DNA from: Phage NC-B
Sequence record: MK310183
Length of the DNA stretch: 64,000 nt
Reading direction: 5' to 3' (one strand)
Shown here: in pieces, positions 8,414-40,930 of the stretch
How positions within the stretch are numbered: the stretch's first letter is position 1
How the letters are laid out: each line of letters starts with the position of its first letter
Position numbers and translations under genes: made by a program
Notes under the pieces: generated by a model
Told to the model about the DNA's origin: nothing
Databases searched by the model: none
What the model saw: only the letters and a program-made list of their open reading frames with translations

Positions 8414-9192
8414 CAGTAGATTCCGTAACTGTTAGTCCTTCGTCGGTTGCAAGCCTTCCGACGGGGGCTACTCAGCAGTTTACAGCTACAGCAGAAATGA
8501 GCGACGGCTCCACAAGCACAACCGGATTTAATTGGTCCGTTGAGGGCGGTGGGGCTGTTTCTGTTTCTGGGCTATATACTGCACCGAGTACGTCGCAAGA
8601 AACCCCAGCAACTATTACGGCTATTAAAGGTGGTAAGTCAGGTACTGCTACAGTTCTATCTGTTTTTGAACCTGCTACTATTGAAGCCAAAGCTAACATC
8701 TCGGGTAAAGTAGGTGGAAGCACCACAGCTTTTACTACAATGTTTACAGCAACTAACTCTTCAGCAGAAGATTATTCTTTTGTTGTATCTCCGACGTCAG
8801 CAGGAACCGTTAGTGCCGCAGGAGTTTTAACTTTAAGTAATGATGCAACTGGCACAGTTACTGTTAAAGCAACTCATAAAACTCAGTCAGGTGTTGAAGC
8901 TACTATAACCTTTACAGGTGTTGTTGCTAAAGCAGCTATTACTGGAAAAACCGTCACTGGTAAGGTTGGTGGTGATACTATTACGTTTGCTGAGTTATTT
9001 ACAGCAACTAACTCTTCAGCAGAAGATTACAACTTCGTATCAAGTCCTCCTGAAATGACTTCATCTATCGATGAGAGCACTGGTCTTGTTACCTTGGCTG
9101 CTGGCGCTACAGGTGATATCACAATTACTGCTACTCACAAAACACAAACGTCTGTGACAGCAACTGCTACGATTACGGTGGTATCAGAGTAA
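7355..9192 (+). CDS. major capsid protein long form (capsid fused to three Ig-like Big_2-type domains via -1 frameshift at 8392-8398)
   Basis: -1 frame ORF 8320..9192 has no independent SD; contains tandem repeats ...FTATNSSAEDY...TVKATHKTQ... Confidence 0.55.
8392..8398 (+). other. -1 programmed ribosomal frameshift slippery heptamer G_GGA_AAG
   Basis: X_XXY_YYZ heptamer 5 codons before the capsid stop; the -1 frame is open from here to 9192 and encodes Ig-like domains. Confidence 0.6.
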
Positions 9193-33032: not shown

Positions 33033-33621
33033 AGAGACCTCTCCGTGTCCCTTCAATAATCCACTCCAAATCCTCCACTGCCTCTTCTACAGAACGGTCG
33101 TTAAAGAGGAGATAGGTTGGTAGATTTGTTCCTTCAATATAAGAACGAGAGTCCCCTTCAAAGGAGCAGCCATCTCGGAGAATCTGAACTACTCGAACAT
33201 GGAAGTGTTTCTCTAGTTCTTCAACTTCTGCTTTAAATCCACCATCAGAGAAGACGATAACATCATTCTGTGATGGGATACGTTGTTGAATATTGCTAAC
33301 AGCAAGTTTACCCATGCAGGTCTCACCAAACATGGGCTTCAGATAGTTCTCACTAGTTGCAATCATCAAGTCTCGAACTGACTTACCGTCCCATTCAGGA
33401 CGGCTATGTTCTTTCCACTCACGATCGTTGTACAGCTCCATGAACTCATAAAGAGGTAGACCTAATGCAGCAGCAGCCACTCGATACATAGGCTCCTTAA
33501 AAGCCTTTACATGCGGCCTAAACTCGGTGTTACCAAGTGTTTTCTCTAACCAAGAATTAGCGATTGTGTCTTTACCACAACCCGGTGGTCCATTCAGAAT
33601 TACTACTAATGGTTTACTCAT
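33025..33621 (-). CDS. P-loop kinase, putative (d)NMP kinase
   Basis: Walker A LNGPPGCGKDT. Confidence 0.55.
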   Translation of the reverse strand: MSKPLVVILNGPPGCGKDTIANSWLEKTLGNTEFRPHVKAFKEPMYRVAAAALGLPLYEFMELYNDREWKEHSRPEWDGKSVRDLMIATSENYLKPMFGETCMGKLAVSNIQQRIPSQNDVIVFSDGGFKAEVEELEKHFHVRVVQILRDGCSFEGDSRSYIEGTNLPTYLLFNDRSVEEAVEDLEWIIEGTRRGLYV

Positions 33622-34271
33622 TATTGAATCATCCCTTGAAGATCTTCTTTATCAAAGTGCTTCTCTACTACCGCTTCATACAGATCACGATTCTCTGAAT
33701 AACGACGATAGAAGGTTCCGTGTGAAATTCCCAACTCTTGCTGGATGTGATCATGTGGGATGCCGAGAAAGAGCATTGAGAACATGCTTGCCATCTTACG
33801 GTTTTCCATAATGTCACTCAGGTCTTGGAAGAAGAAAAAGATTCTAGATTCCAAGAACGGATCTCCAGTAGAATCATGCTTATCCATCGCAATCTCTAAA
33901 GGACTTTCCCATGAATTCATCTCAGGAGGTCTAAACATATCAGCCTCTGGAATAGAGTAGATACGTCGGTCTCCAACTGTCTGACGATTAGAACGAATCG
34001 ACCAGATGATATTCTTGACACGATAAGTCATGTGCTCAATATCTTTTTCATCAGTGAGCAGAAGTTCTTCTTGCTTTGCAAACACAAAACGCCAAGCGTT
34101 CAGTAATACTTCCTGAGCAACATCCTCTGCCTCGTGATAGTCTTTAATGTCATACATAAAATACTTATGCACAACTTTCCAGTTCTCTCGATAAAATTCA
34201 TCGAAGGTTGGATAATATTTAATAGGTATGCCATGAATACGATAGCGTGTGGGTGTTGTCTTTTTCTTCAT
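33621..34271 (-). CDS. phage-encoded sigma factor (sigma-70/ECF-like)
   Basis: region-2-like [18 protein letters not shown] and C-terminal [24 protein letters not shown]. Confidence 0.7.
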
Positions 34272-34295: not shown

Positions 34296-34520
34296 TTAAA
34301 CTACACAGAATAAATACATTGCTGTATCAGGACAAGGGATGGCTGTCTGAATGCCACTTACTTTAATCCACATATCCTCTTCAGAGTCATAATAAGCCCA
34401 ATAGGACTGATCTCCATCTACAAAGAATTTAAAGGTTCGTCCCCAAACCTGATTATTGTATTCCCATACTGCATGAAGCTGAGTAACACCTTCTGGTATT
34501 GTAAGTTCCGCTCTGATCAT
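34296..34520 (-). CDS. hypothetical protein
   Basis: 74 aa ORF; start overlaps upstream stop (ATGA). Confidence 0.45.
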   Translation of the reverse strand: MIRAELTIPEGVTQLHAVWEYNNQVWGRTFKFFVDGDQSYWAYYDSEEDMWIKVSGIQTAIPCPDTAMYLFCVV

Positions 34521-34777
34521 TGTATTCCTCTCTCCTTGAGAGCTTTAAGCAAACCGTTGTGGTTAGCGGCACAGGTTGTATAATTGTCCTGATACCACTC
34601 GAGTGTTGTTGCAAGTGCTACTCCCTGTCCACTCTGAAGTAAAGGGAGGTCTACATCACATTCAGCTTTTAGGTTTGTTGGTAAGGGCATTAGCTGCCTG
34701 CTGTTGTCGCTCGTTGAACAAGCTGACATACTCATCACTAGCACACACATTGTAAAAAACTGGCTTAGTCTTTTCAT
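34517..34777 (-). CDS. o-spanin (Rz1-like outer-membrane lipoprotein)
   Basis: signal peptide with lipobox ...VMSMSAC; Pro-rich mature part; gene overlaps i-spanin 3' end in another frame. Confidence 0.6.
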   Translation of the reverse strand: MKRLSQFFTMCVLVMSMSACSTSDNSRQLMPLPTNLKAECDVDLPLLQSGQGVALATTLEWYQDNYTTCAANHNGLLKALKERGIQ

Positions 34778-35009
34778 AATGCATCTCTTTGTAAATAGTT
34801 TCCGTGTTCTTCTTCCAGTTTGATAAACCAGTCAGAACTTTCTGAGCCACTTCATCAGCAGCCTTAGCTCTCTCAATCTCAATCTCTTGCTGTTTCTTCT
34901 CTTGGTCAAGAGCATTGCTGTCATTTCGATATTGCTCAAACTTGACACCACCAAAGAAAATCAGAGCTGTGAAGATTAAAAAACCTATATTGTTTTGAAG
35001 CTTTTCCAT
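34662..35009 (-). CDS. i-spanin (Rz-like)
   Basis: N-terminal TM (IGFLIFTALIFFGG) then coiled-coil periplasmic domain; start set to ATG 35009 (GGAG SD) because GTG 35033 lies inside the upstream terminator. Confidence 0.6.
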   Translation of the reverse strand: MEKLQNNIGFLIFTALIFFGGVKFEQYRNDSNALDQEKKQQEIEIERAKAADEVAQKVLTGLSNWKKNTETIYKEMHYEKTKPVFYNVCASDEYVSLFNERQQQAANALTNKPKS

Positions 35010-35021
35010 TTTAACTCCAAC

Positions 35022-35049
35022 GAAAAAAGCCACCCGAAGGTGGCTAAGC
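35022..35049 (-). terminator. rho-independent terminator
   Basis: minus-strand AGCCACC-UUCG-GGUGGCU then UUUUUUCG. Confidence 0.75.
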
Positions 35050-35067: not shown

Positions 35068-35808
35068 TTAGAATGGAGAGTCATCCTCTTCAAAGGTTGA
35101 TTGCGGCTCTTCATTAATGGTAGGGATGCTTGGAGTAGCATCTTTCTGTTCAGTGTCAGAAGCTTTAGTAACTTCACGACCAGCCAGAGGGATATTCTTA
35201 GCATCGTTAGCTTGAGTCAAGAGGTTACGTTGGAATGGGAAGATTGCTTGATAAGCAGCTAAGTTAGCGTCAGTCTCAGCATACGGTTCGAAGAAGATCA
35301 ACTCACTACGAGGAGCACCTACCGCGTCACGATATTTAGTCGGGATTGGAGTGATGCTTTTAATGGAGTTTTTCTTCTCACCAGCTTTGTTTACATAGGA
35401 ATTAACCAGAATGTTAACAGGCTGACCTAACAGCATATCTTTAAACCAACCCAAATCACCTTTCAGTGCTTGAACACTTGGGTCGATCATTTTAATCAGA
35501 TTTAGAATACCAGAGTTCTTAGCTCGTGGATTTACATCGAAAGATTTAAACTGGCAAGCAGGACGAGGGTCCAGAGGTTTGCCTTCATTATCAGTCCCTG
35601 TTGCATCTACGCCAATCAGCTCAAAAGCTAAGTCCATACGGAAAGCTGGATTCTTAGGAGTAACTGCTTTGGTTTTAGGGTCAATCCAAGGGTCACGATT
35701 GTGAACACCCAAACCTACAACACGAACAATACGTGCTTCGTACTCACCATCAGGGATTACATTGTAGTTGGATTTACGGGATACAGACAGTTCAGGGATC
35801 ATAGACAT
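35068..35808 (-). CDS. putative single-stranded DNA-binding protein
   Basis: 246 aa; acidic C-terminal tail ending ...FEEDDSPF (SSB-like terminal Phe); first gene after AT-rich intergenic region. Confidence 0.5.
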   Translation of the reverse strand: MSMIPELSVSRKSNYNVIPDGEYEARIVRVVGLGVHNRDPWIDPKTKAVTPKNPAFRMDLAFELIGVDATGTDNEGKPLDPRPACQFKSFDVNPRAKNSGILNLIKMIDPSVQALKGDLGWFKDMLLGQPVNILVNSYVNKAGEKKNSIKSITPIPTKYRDAVGAPRSELIFFEPYAETDANLAAYQAIFPFQRNLLTQANDAKNIPLAGREVTKASDTEQKDATPSIPTINEEPQSTFEEDDSPF

Positions 35809-36141
35809 ATTAATATTTCCTTATATAGATTTAAGATTGTTGCTCTCTTTGAGCGGTTTGTATACTATATACATTACACTTATACAGATAAGGTTCTATT
35901 ATACTATAACCTTTTTGGTAGTAGATAATGACAAGTAGTAATGTATATATGGTATAGCTAGTAAAGCTATTGCAGGCTTGTATATTGGGCAATCATTGTA
36001 ACCCTTGCAAGTACCGAAGGGCAGGAGACACCTGCGAGATAAAAATAGAGAATTAAGGAAATCCTTGATTTAGGTTGAGGACTCCTAGGACTTTGATTCT
36101 CTATTAAAATCAAAAGAAAACTTAACTTAAAACAATAACTT
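35809..36141. promoter_or_regulatory. long AT-rich intergenic region, candidate promoter cluster or origin
   Basis: 333 bp non-coding; repeated TATAC/TATACT motifs; inverted repeat AGAGAAT...ATTCTCT around a CCTAGG palindrome. Confidence 0.35.
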
Positions 36142-36780
36142 CTACCATTCTAAAAGACCTTTAAAACTAGTTTGTTCTACTGTTCTCTGATAAGGTAAGT
36201 TAGATTCTGCTTGTTTGCTTAACATCTCTTGTACTTTATCAGTAATTGGATAATCTTTTTGTAATAAAGAAGCTATCCACTCTTTCCTACTTTCCAGTTC
36301 TTTTCTAATCTCTTGCAGAGACACAGCTTTGTAATCAATTTGTTCCATAGAGGTACAAAAATATCTCCAATCTTTGATAGTAGAGTTATGAGTATGAGCA
36401 TAGATATTATACTTTCCTCTCATTTCATCAGAGTGAATAGGAATATGAGTTACCCAAAATTCTTTGTATTTATAATCACCACTGATGTGTCTAAAGACTT
36501 TCATCATATCAGGGAGAAGTTCTAATCTGTCATGATTTCCTAAGACAAGATGTTTCTCTCCCTTTACTTCAGCGATAATATCAAGTGCATATTTCTCAAA
36601 CACCCAATCACCTGTAAAGAAAGTTTTATCACGTTTAGTAACATGGTCGAACGCTGCTAAGATAGCTTTGTCATGTTCTTCAATACTACTAAACTTCTTT
36701 CTAAAATTACAGATGTTACGATGGCCTAGGTGACCATCACCTGCAAAATAAACTTCAGCCATTCTCGTATGTGTCCTCAT
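36142..36780 (-). CDS. calcineurin-like metallophosphoesterase
   Basis: motifs GDGHLGHRN (GDxHG), GDWVF, LVLGNHD (GNHD). Confidence 0.75.
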   Translation of the reverse strand: MRTHTRMAEVYFAGDGHLGHRNICNFRKKFSSIEEHDKAILAAFDHVTKRDKTFFTGDWVFEKYALDIIAEVKGEKHLVLGNHDRLELLPDMMKVFRHISGDYKYKEFWVTHIPIHSDEMRGKYNIYAHTHNSTIKDWRYFCTSMEQIDYKAVSLQEIRKELESRKEWIASLLQKDYPITDKVQEMLSKQAESNLPYQRTVEQTSFKGLLEW

Positions 36781-38685: not shown

Positions 38686-38873
38686 TGATCTTTCTCCTCT
38701 CGTTCAACCCATGTACGGAAAAGCTCCCCATACACTTTGGCATCATCAAAACGTCCTTCTTCCTGTGCGAGTTTTTGTTGCTTCAAGCACCATTCAGAAC
38801 TTTTTACTTCTTCCACTTCCTTGTCTCCTTAAAAAGAACTAATCAATAAGACTAGTTCATTTCGTAATACGAT

Positions 38874-39065
38874 TCAGCTCTTCCACGGGAGGTTGATGGT
38901 TAAATTCTTAATGGAGAAATCTTTATCAGGAAACTCTTCCATTAACTCAGCCGCTTCTTGAATAGCTTTTCTTTCTGTGTTATAGATGCAGAAATGTCCA
39001 TTACAGCAAACAATTGCATCTTTTGCTCCCGTAATGGCCCATGTTTCATGTACATGTCTAGTCAC
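38874..39065 (-). CDS. hypothetical protein
   Basis: 63 aa ORF. Confidence 0.45.
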   Translation of the reverse strand: MTRHVHETWAITGAKDAIVCCNGHFCIYNTERKAIQEAAELMEEFPDKDFSIKNLTINLPWKS

Positions 39066-39082
39066 TATTCCTCCACTACAAA

Positions 39083-40930
39083 TTAGTGAGTGTGATTCCA
39101 GTTTAACCCAATCTTACAGTCAGATGCCAGAGGGCATTCCATTTTGAGATACTCACCTGCTTTACGAACACACTCTTCAGTGAGGGTACGAAGTTTGTTA
39201 ACATCGTCACGATGTACAGTGAACTGGCCTTCATCATGCATGTCAATAACCTTCGCACAACGAACACCATCACGCTCAATCCATTTATTAAGGAATAGCA
39301 TTGCATACTTCATAACAATCGCCCCAGCGCTCTGTAAGAGAGTATTTAAGGCTTTATGAACCATAACCTTTCCAGTTGCATCTCTTCTCATTGTAATACG
39401 ACGTCCATCCACACCGTAGATGTATCCACTTTGTGCTTTCTCTGTCATACGTTCAATAAGAATTGCAATACAAGGATTCTCTGCTAAGAATCTTGCCCTC
39501 ATGACAGCTCCTTCATCAGAGCCACCGCCTACGATGCTTCCTAACTTAGCGTCACCAGCTCCGTAGTTGAATGCGTAGATAAATGTTTTAGCATTATCAC
39601 GAGTAGGAAGGCCAGCAAGTTTTTGGTTATGTGAGTGAATATCTCCTTCTAAAAGAATATCTCTGTACATAACAGCAGAAGCTAGACCGCGTTCAGCTTC
39701 TCGTTTCTTAGCCGGGTTGTTTTCTCGCTCTGCTTCAGCGAGCATCTCACGACATTCTTTAATAAGGTAGTGAGCTAGCATCCTCAGCTCAAGACCAGAG
39801 CCATCGTAACCTAAGAAGATTTCACGACCAGCAGGAACATAGAACTTATAGGCACCTACAGGTTTGTCTTTCTTGCCCGGTTTTCCCACTTCGTAGATAA
39901 TGTTAGTACCCTTTCGTACGTAACACCCATCAGGGATATGGTTGGTAATGATGAAAGGATGGTTATGACTATCGTCTGAGGAATAGTCAGATTGAAAAAG
40001 ACTGCGGCACTCGTGACCAAACAAACCGCGAGAAGGAATATTAACAACAATGCGATGTTTAAAACGAAATGTCGGAGTAGCGCAGCTATTAGCTTCGGCG
40101 GACAACTTACCATCTTTACGTTCCTTGTCGATAAGCCCGCTAATCAAACCTAGCCTGTGAGCCGCTACAACGCGTCTCTTAAGCAAACTTCCTACACCCC
40201 CTAGCTCACCCCCAAGCCCTTCTTCAAGAGTCTCCTCAAGGTTTGTAGGGGCTGTAGGCCACTTGTTTGATGTAGCCAAAGCTTTTTTGATTTCATCAAA
40301 GGTTACAGGCTTCTTCCTATTAGGGTTAAGACCTAAACCGCTGACATAAGCTTTCATATAATTGACAGTGTGATAACGGAAGTGCTTATCCAAAAACCTT
40401 CGGATATCAGCATCTATCATCTCTGCTGTCTGTTTCTCTTTAGCGTTACCTCGAATCCAAGCAGAATACCATGCAGAGTATGTACCATACTTCTTCATAG
40501 CTTTACGAATTTCAAAAGTATTCCAAGGTTTCTTAGAATAATTCCACTCTGGAGGTATAAAACCTTCATCCATCAAGGCTTCTTTAATACGTGCATCTTT
40601 TGATGGGTCAAAATCTACATACTCAACGCAAGTAAACGCCCCACCGATATCTTCTCTTTTAAGACCAACCCTATCGCAATAGAGCTGAGGCCACTTCTGT
40701 AAAGCACCTGACTTCTTAAAAGGCTTAGCATAAGTTGAACCATCCACCCGCATTTTAGGGAGGAGAGGAATCAGTTCTTTATCAATATTGACAATAATCT
40801 CTTTGAGAAGGTGAACAAACCACCGAGCGTTTCTTCTGTTGAAGTTGACTCCATGCTTCGCTTGTTTTGAGATTATATCAGCGACTGTCATCTCCGTTAT
40901 GAAAGGTAACTTATCAGGGTTATCCATCAC
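39083..40930 (-). CDS. DNA polymerase, family A (polymerase domain only)
   Basis: motif A DGSGLELRMLAHY, motif B RDNAKTFIYAFNYGAG, motif C VIDMHDE; no exonuclease motifs in this ORF. Confidence 0.85.
   Translation of the reverse strand: MMDNPDKLPFITEMTVADIISKQAKHGVNFNRRNARWFVHLLKEIIVNIDKELIPLLPKMRVDGSTYAKPFKKSGALQKWPQLYCDRVGLKREDIGGAFTCVEYVDFDPSKDARIKEALMDEGFIPPEWNYSKKPWNTFEIRKAMKKYGTYSAWYSAWIRGNAKEKQTAEMIDADIRRFLDKHFRYHTVNYMKAYVSGLGLNPNRKKPVTFDEIKKALATSNKWPTAPTNLEETLEEGLGGELGGVGSLLKRRVVAAHRLGLISGLIDKERKDGKLSAEANSCATPTFRFKHRIVVNIPSRGLFGHECRSLFQSDYSSDDSHNHPFIITNHIPDGCYVRKGTNIIYEVGKPGKKDKPVGAYKFYVPAGREIFLGYDGSGLELRMLAHYLIKECREMLAEAERENNPAKKREAERGLASAVMYRDILLEGDIHSHNQKLAGLPTRDNAKTFIYAFNYGAGDAKLGSIVGGGSDEGAVMRARFLAENPCIAILIERMTEKAQSGYIYGVDGRRITMRRDATGKVMVHKALNTLLQSAGAIVMKYAMLFLNKWIERDGVRCAKVIDMHDEGQFTVHRDDVNKLRTLTEECVRKAGEYLKMECPLASDCKIGLNWNHTH

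Follow-up and report, generated by a model that had tools for sequence, protein, structure and literature searches.

A predicted divergent gp36 promoter pair and a putative conserved non-coding RNA in the gap upstream of gene 40 of phiEco32-like phages

gp36 promoters and the gap upstream of gene 40

Bacteriophage phiEco32 is a model for the takeover of the host RNA polymerase by a phage sigma factor, gp36, with gp79 as its partner. Promoters of the gp36 type share the element tAATGTAtA, in which AATGTA is centred at −11.5 and transcription starts 6–8 nt downstream. For the promoter P68, a cryo-EM structure revealed contacts of gp36 with G at −37 and A at −34, the mutation of which abolishes transcription, and the G at −11 was shown to matter as well. 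Six gp36 promoters have been published for phiEco32, located directly upstream of genes 6, 13, 26, 40, 58, and 68, and the promoter set of this phage is regarded as consisting of six sites, all of them upstream of genes.

Among other phages, the OOP RNA of lambda is a 77-nt cis-antisense RNA that is transcribed from a host sigma-70 promoter, ends at an intrinsic terminator, and is encoded beside the replication genes. The primary origin of T7 and the T4 origins ori(uvsY) and ori(34) are promoter-dependent phage origins.

The DNA analyzed here is a stretch of 64 kb, which is referred to as a whole as the window, and belongs to a phiEco32-like E. coli podophage of the Kuravirus group (Gordonclarkvirinae, Kuravirus and allies). 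Over the 2 kb surrounding the gap under study, identity is 99.8% to Escherichia phage AnnaHegner_Bas87 (Bas87) and 82–97% to 97 other E. coli or Shigella podophages of the phiEco32 group. Genes are oriented on the plus strand left of ~31 kb and on the minus strand right of ~31 kb; the GC skew has its sole turn at ~31 kb, where the gene direction flips, and follows gene direction. The gap (positions 35809–36141, 333 bp) is exactly the space between two minus-strand ORFs, the homologue of gene 40 (phi32_40; 35068–35808) on its left and a phosphoesterase ORF (36142–36780) on its right, and is unannotated in the Bas87 record. It lies within the middle-gene replication region, ~3 kb from the DNA polymerase gene, and the gp36 homologue is encoded at 33621–34271 on the minus strand. 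Every one of the 98 phage records whose gene 40 product was at least 80% identical also contained the gap sequence.

A preliminary description of this DNA had characterized the gap as AT-rich, non-coding, and rich in TATAC motifs. The GC content is indeed 31.5% as compared to 42.3% for the window, and TATAC and GTATA each occur four times, with ~0.24 and ~0.22 copies, respectively, expected from window frequencies. Most of the TATAC motifs belong to two copies of GTAATGTATATA, one per strand, which form a perfect 12-nt inverted repeat (arms 35866–35877 and 35938–35949). This is the strongest repeat in the gap and was absent from that description. For the gap to be the largest intergenic one in the window, as stated there, small GTG-start ORFs have to be counted; the statement fails for ATG-start ORFs alone, as a 397-bp stretch at 38686–39082, in which two small CDSs are annotated in Bas87, contains no ATG-start ORF. 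The designation of the gene 40 product as SSB-like was unsupported by Pfam, PDB, and PHROGs: the protein had no Pfam or PDB match, its PHROG is of unknown function, and what supports the label is one GenBank entry and the acidic C-terminal tail (...FEEDDSPF), a kind of tail that also ends some phage single-strand DNA-binding proteins.

P40 and a gp36-type site on the opposite strand

All six published promoters map in the window, at positions 1582(+), 9349(+), 26485(+), 35868(−), 42218(−), and 46353(−). Exact matches to TAATGTATA occur four times in the window; three of these are known promoters, and the fourth is located at 35939–35947 on the plus strand of the gap. The exact match on the minus strand of the gap (35868–35876) is the homologue of phiEco32 P40, the gp36-dependent middle promoter of gene 40, which has been mapped experimentally and is already published; in the SU10 paper, the homologous sequence is listed as a middle promoter “between CDS37 and CDS38”. 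With AATGTA placed at −14 to −9 (PMC12276001), transcription from P40 is predicted to start at 35861, and the resulting 5′ leader of the gene 40 mRNA (35809–35861, minus strand) contains the ribosome-binding site AAGGA at 35818–35822. In an alignment of 27 distinct relatives, 38 of the 53 leader columns were invariant. The leader also holds a small hairpin, GCUC-AAAGA-GAGC. The promoters P58 and P68 are situated in very small spaces without comparable extra sequence, and the 270 extra bases in the gap upstream of gene 40 therefore stand out.

The fourth TAATGTATA match represents a −10-type element with a predicted transcription start at 35954. Upstream of it lies the −35-region block TGGTAGTAGATA (35916–35927, plus strand), of which the window contains only one other exact copy, that of P68 (46373–46384, minus strand). 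The distance between TGGTAGTAGATA and AATGTA is the same at both sites, and the plus-strand site carries G at −37 and A at −34 as does P68, while P40 has A at −34 but T at −37. Hence, the plus-strand site resembles P68 and P40 in its exact TAATGTATA and P68 also in the −35 block and its spacing, and it would provide another template carrying the −35 bases that gp36 contacts in the cryo-EM structure of P68. Across the 27 distinct relatives, identity was 93% in the −35 block and 94% in the −10 element, in contrast to 42% in the 10-nt spacer. Conserved −35 and −10 sequences around a variable spacer are the pattern expected of a working promoter.

The plus-strand element is kept in 26 of the 27 distinct relatives. 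L040 (ERZ1034915 NODE-75), a high-coverage metagenome contig, has TAATaTATA at this site, a G-to-A change at −11, together with an intact P40. Since L040 has lost the −11 G while keeping P40, the plus-strand promoter may be dispensable. The variant site lies ~110 nt upstream of position 9053 of the L040 locus. A scan of IMG/VR with the two-part pattern recovered two sites each, the same pair as in the window, in phiEco32, ECBP2, NJ01, and KBNP1711, and the number of matches in unrelated contigs was about that expected by chance. A metagenome scan contributed six loci only.

The plus-strand site differs from the six published phiEco32 promoters in that it faces against the gene cluster, has no ORF downstream, and is predicted from sequence. 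It is not located directly upstream of a gene in its own direction and is antisense to the flanking genes, and the plus strand from 35954 to 36141 contains no ATG and no ORF of more than seven codons. The site was found in none of the published six-promoter lists that we compared, with the primary mapping paper (Pavlova 2012) outside this comparison. One published promoter study would necessarily have missed it, because only the strand of the downstream gene was searched. Of the two sites in the gap, the published transcription experiments that we consulted cover P40 only. The predicted plus-strand gp36 promoter, with its predicted start, appears to be unreported. The promoter cluster proposed in the preliminary description is borne out by the presence of the P40 homologue and of another gp36-type site that faces the other way. 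A sigma-70 promoter scan yielded chance-level matches only.

The two promoters are separated by an AT-rich segment (35878–35915), which is the least conserved part of the gap: among the 27 relatives, its mean pairwise identity is 47%, and 3 of its 38 columns do not vary. It lies inside the region between the two predicted starts (35857–35956), where the duplex is less stable than anywhere else in the 64-kb window on each of three scales (60, 100, and 150 bp), ~4 SD from the window mean. Phages of the ES17 type carry an insertion of ~150 nt at this place with a 48-aa ORF on the minus strand. In these loci (L013 from ES17, 480–623; L006, L040–L044), the ATG of the ORF abuts the conserved −35 block, and the insertion holds a second GGTAGTAG beside the hairpin CTACC-GGAA-GGTAG.

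Conservation and predicted folding downstream of the plus-strand site

The region downstream of the plus-strand promoter has a GC content of 45%. It begins with a hairpin, AUAGCU-AGUAA-AGCUAU (35954–35970, plus strand), which opens at the predicted first base of the transcript. Two of its pairs show compensatory changes among the relatives (UA to GC, and CG to UA or AU). At a third position of the helix, 8 of 20 sequences form a G-U pair, whose minus-strand equivalent would be an A-C mismatch, and the phiEco32-type version of this hairpin folds on the plus strand only. The adjacent segment (35973–36012) is an exchangeable middle cassette that occurs in two unrelated versions among the relatives, with 69% mean identity. 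It is followed by a conserved block of 97 nt (36013–36109), in which 87 of 97 columns are the same in all 27 relatives and mean pairwise identity reaches 95.9%. This conservation is about that of the first and second codon positions of gene 40 (95–96%), as compared to 78.6% at third positions. The indels in the block total +2 nt, which rules out a conserved ORF, and the block is therefore non-coding. At 36109, the similarity between relatives stops abruptly, and at least three different right-hand flanks occur beyond this point; in the window, the flank begins with an AT-rich tail (36110–36141, 16% GC) that reaches the stop codon of the phosphoesterase gene.

Two further hairpins are predicted on the plus strand of the 97-nt block, GCAGG-AGACA-CCUGC at 36021–36035 and a 62-nt hairpin at 36044–36105. 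The latter comprises the inverted repeat highlighted in the preliminary description, the AGGACT direct repeat, and the CCTAGG palindrome. The inverted repeat itself was confirmed, with arms AATAGAGAATTAA and TTGATTCTCTATT at 36044–36056 and 36093–36105, but CCTAGG is not its centre: the repeat is centred at ~36074.5, and CCTAGG (36084–36089) lies off-centre as the junction of the direct repeat AGGACT-CCT-AGGACT (copies at 36078–36083 and 36087–36092). On the plus strand only, the lower stem of the 62-nt hairpin reaches 15 bp and includes two invariant G-U pairs. The predicted free energy is −21.7 kcal/mol on the plus strand vs. −15.7 kcal/mol on the minus strand, and overall the plus-strand form is 5–6 kcal/mol more stable. 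The plus-strand RNA folded better than the minus strand in all 15 of 15 phages tested, and the fold z-scores of the window sequence were −3.0 (plus) vs. −2.0 (minus).

Covariation was limited to one 6-bp helix; the other 27 pairs are near-invariant and neither support nor contradict a structure. In the TH42 variant, a predicted plus-strand pair is broken, whereas the pair would be kept on the minus strand. The distant relatives 7-11, GAP52, J3S, PKM.Lu.22.1, and vB_CsaP_009 added no covariation depth; except for GAP52, in which an HNH endonuclease gene abuts the gene 40 homologue, they have only 75–100 bp upstream of this homologue. The two copies of the direct repeat (36078–36092) vary in parallel between relatives, AGGACU ... 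AGGACU in one version and UAGGGACU ... UAGGGACU in the other (alignment A1, columns 152–169). The gain of the same bases in both copies points to a common partner or to conversion of one copy by the other.

A search of Rfam 15 (E up to 10) assigned the gap to no family, the best hit being 6A RNA with 18.7 bits (gathering threshold 41.2, E = 3.4), and scans for tRNA and tmRNA genes in the gap were negative. On the plus strand, no intrinsic terminator was found up to position 39500. Several other candidates were rejected or found no support. A 48-aa ORF with a TTG start (35967–36113, minus strand) is disrupted in relatives, where the indels add up to +2 nt. Derivation from the host, or mimicry of a host sequence, was rejected because there was no match in 5,426 E. 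coli genomes, and the longest complementarity to a potential trans target within the window was 12 nt, which is the chance level. A long-range pairing UUGCAGG/CCUGCGA was predicted for one cassette type but is broken in the other and was not adopted. The ribosome-binding region of gene 40 (35815–35823) is perfectly complementary over 9 nt to the conserved block (36054–36062), a pairing that could mask the ribosome-binding site on a read-through minus-strand RNA; this match was dismissed as being at chance level (~0.6 expected) and is shorter in phiEco32-type phages.

Proposed antisense RNA and rival explanations

We consider it probable that the gap is a divergent pair of gp36 promoters and that the rightward one makes an antisense non-coding RNA. 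Host RNA polymerase together with gp36 would read both back-to-back promoters. Leftward transcription from P40 would start the gene 40 mRNA at ~35861, and the rightward promoter (−35 at 35916–35927, −10 at 35939–35947) would give rise to a transcript that starts at 35954 and runs against the flanking genes. The conserved part of this RNA would comprise ~155 nt (35954–36109), would be non-coding, and would consist of the 5′ hairpin, the exchangeable cassette, and a near-invariant 3′ domain around the 62-nt hairpin. It would run antisense to the untranslated 3′ end of the minus-strand operon located upstream. As there is no terminator on the plus strand, the RNA may extend into the phosphoesterase gene if neither processing nor Rho ends it earlier. 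The firing of the plus-strand site, the end of its transcript, and the role of the RNA are points that we infer from sequence comparison. Our preferred role, to which we hold loosely, is that of a cis-antisense or structured regulatory RNA at the junction of two middle transcription units. A literature search retrieved no report of antisense RNA in these phages.

Such an RNA would resemble OOP of lambda as a predicted small non-coding transcript that has its own promoter, opposes the flanking genes, lies near replication functions, and is predicted to overlap with the 3′ end of the upstream message. Unlike OOP, it would depend on a phage-sigma promoter, lack a plus-strand terminator, and have a conserved part of ~155 nt; sequence and Rfam comparisons revealed no similarity between OOP and the gap RNA. 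If the proposal is true, no non-coding transcription unit would have been proposed for the phiEco32 group before this seventh site, which would also be a candidate for an antisense regulator where two middle operons meet or for the replication origin. While the gene 40 promoter is already in the literature, the plus-strand promoter and its putative conserved non-coding product appear to be unreported and would be a moderate, testable addition.

The functions that could be ascribed to the plus-strand promoter are not limited to antisense regulation. We regard it as doubtful, although conceivable, that the product of this orphan promoter is a functional RNA peculiar to the phiEco32 group, serving either as an origin primer or R-loop or as a structured RNA bound by a protein. 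On the second of these readings, the near-invariant 97-nt domain might be bound by a phage or host protein; this domain holds the AGGAC(U) repeat pair, both members of which differ in the same way from one form of the block to the other. Both readings would make the exchangeable middle cassette a variable module. That the gap as a whole is a transcription-activated origin, where transcription from the orphan middle promoter or from both divergent promoters would melt the AT-rich segment or provide a primer RNA or an R-loop, seems quite improbable to us. A strictly conserved promoter without a gene to serve would suit such an origin, as would the least stable duplex in the window at three scales (35857–35956) and the location among the middle genes for replication, ~3 kb from the DNA polymerase gene. 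The gap would also share with the T7 and T4 origins a phage-specific middle-type promoter in non-coding DNA beside an easily melted AT-rich segment. However, this segment lies upstream of both promoters and thus behind them, unlike in T7, where it is downstream; it is also the least conserved part of the gap (47%) and is split by the ORF-bearing insertion of ~150 nt in ES17-type phages. The region that would be transcribed is GC-richer (45%), predicted to be folded, and conserved, unlike the corresponding part of the T7 and T4 origins, instead of being an AT-rich unwinding region, and apart from one 6-nt direct repeat no repeated binding sites were found. The GC skew has no inflection at ~36 kb, which is a weak test because the skew follows gene direction. 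A literature search yielded no paper on a replication origin in the phiEco32 group.

Returning to the preferred antisense RNA, its 3′ domain has to be weighed against a function on the minus strand. Read in this direction, the inverted repeat (36037–36105) has a 10-bp A/U-rich stem followed by UUUUUAU, and TTTTTATCTCG is invariant in an alignment of 15 phages. The minus strand continues as ...AUUCUCUAUU UUUAUCU with the U-run directly after the stem, whereas the plus strand reads UAAAAUC and has no U-run. The inverted repeat is therefore possibly a weak, atypical terminator for the upstream operon, and as such could coexist with a plus-strand RNA. It is unlikely, in our estimate, that the conserved block acts solely on the minus strand, terminating or processing the transcript of the upstream operon, and that the plus-strand match is a weak or silent side effect. 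Rho-independent terminators likewise have a T-run after an inverted repeat, and the invariant UUUUUAU suits a terminator on the minus strand better. The position would suit the insulation of two transcription units before the restart at P40, the minus-strand hairpin also forms (−15.7 to −17.7 kcal/mol), the TH42 variant favours minus-strand pairing, and one natural variant is without the −11 G of the plus-strand element. Yet the stem is A/U-rich with few G-C pairs and encloses an interior of ~40 nt, which is not typical of Rho-independent terminators, and on account of these features a terminator scan of 35300–36700 called no site, unlike the clear terminators of this phage and the four listed for SU10. 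A terminator would also leave unexplained the 96% identity over 97 nt, the conserved −35 and −10 sequences of the plus strand around a variable spacer, and the G-U pairs of the 5′ hairpin that can form on the plus strand only. We consider it highly improbable that the conserved blocks are mainly recombination linkers, which stay uniform because they mediate the exchange of variable cassettes and which have no RNA function of their own. The abrupt end of similarity at 36109 with at least three right-hand flanks beyond it would fit such linkers, and so would the occurrence of two unrelated cassettes and two direct-repeat versions in different combinations (e.g., in SU7 and ECBP2). For recombination, however, homology suffices and a sigma-factor consensus at exact spacing is unneeded, and linkers would not produce the compensatory changes in the hairpin. 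Moreover, linkers are compatible with the promoter explanation and do not replace it.

Some minor observations concern the genes around the gap. Of the 212 aa of the phosphoesterase encoded in the window (36142–36780, minus strand), the final 35 match a distinct family of small proteins (phrog_14248). In many relatives, this place is taken by a phosphatase of 168 aa and, after it, by small ORFs that are separate from it (phi32_41/42-like); the form in the window resembles a fusion or an alternative flank on the right. On the other side of gene 40, the spanin gene of Bas87 (L052 1441–2333) is annotated as two joined pieces with an HNH endonuclease gene inside. Approximately 545 bp of this spanin/HNH stretch are missing from the window (34517–35033), from which we conclude that the phage of the window is not Bas87. 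The spanin site of Bas87 appears to host a mobile endonuclease element, and an HNH endonuclease is also encoded near the same region in IME267.
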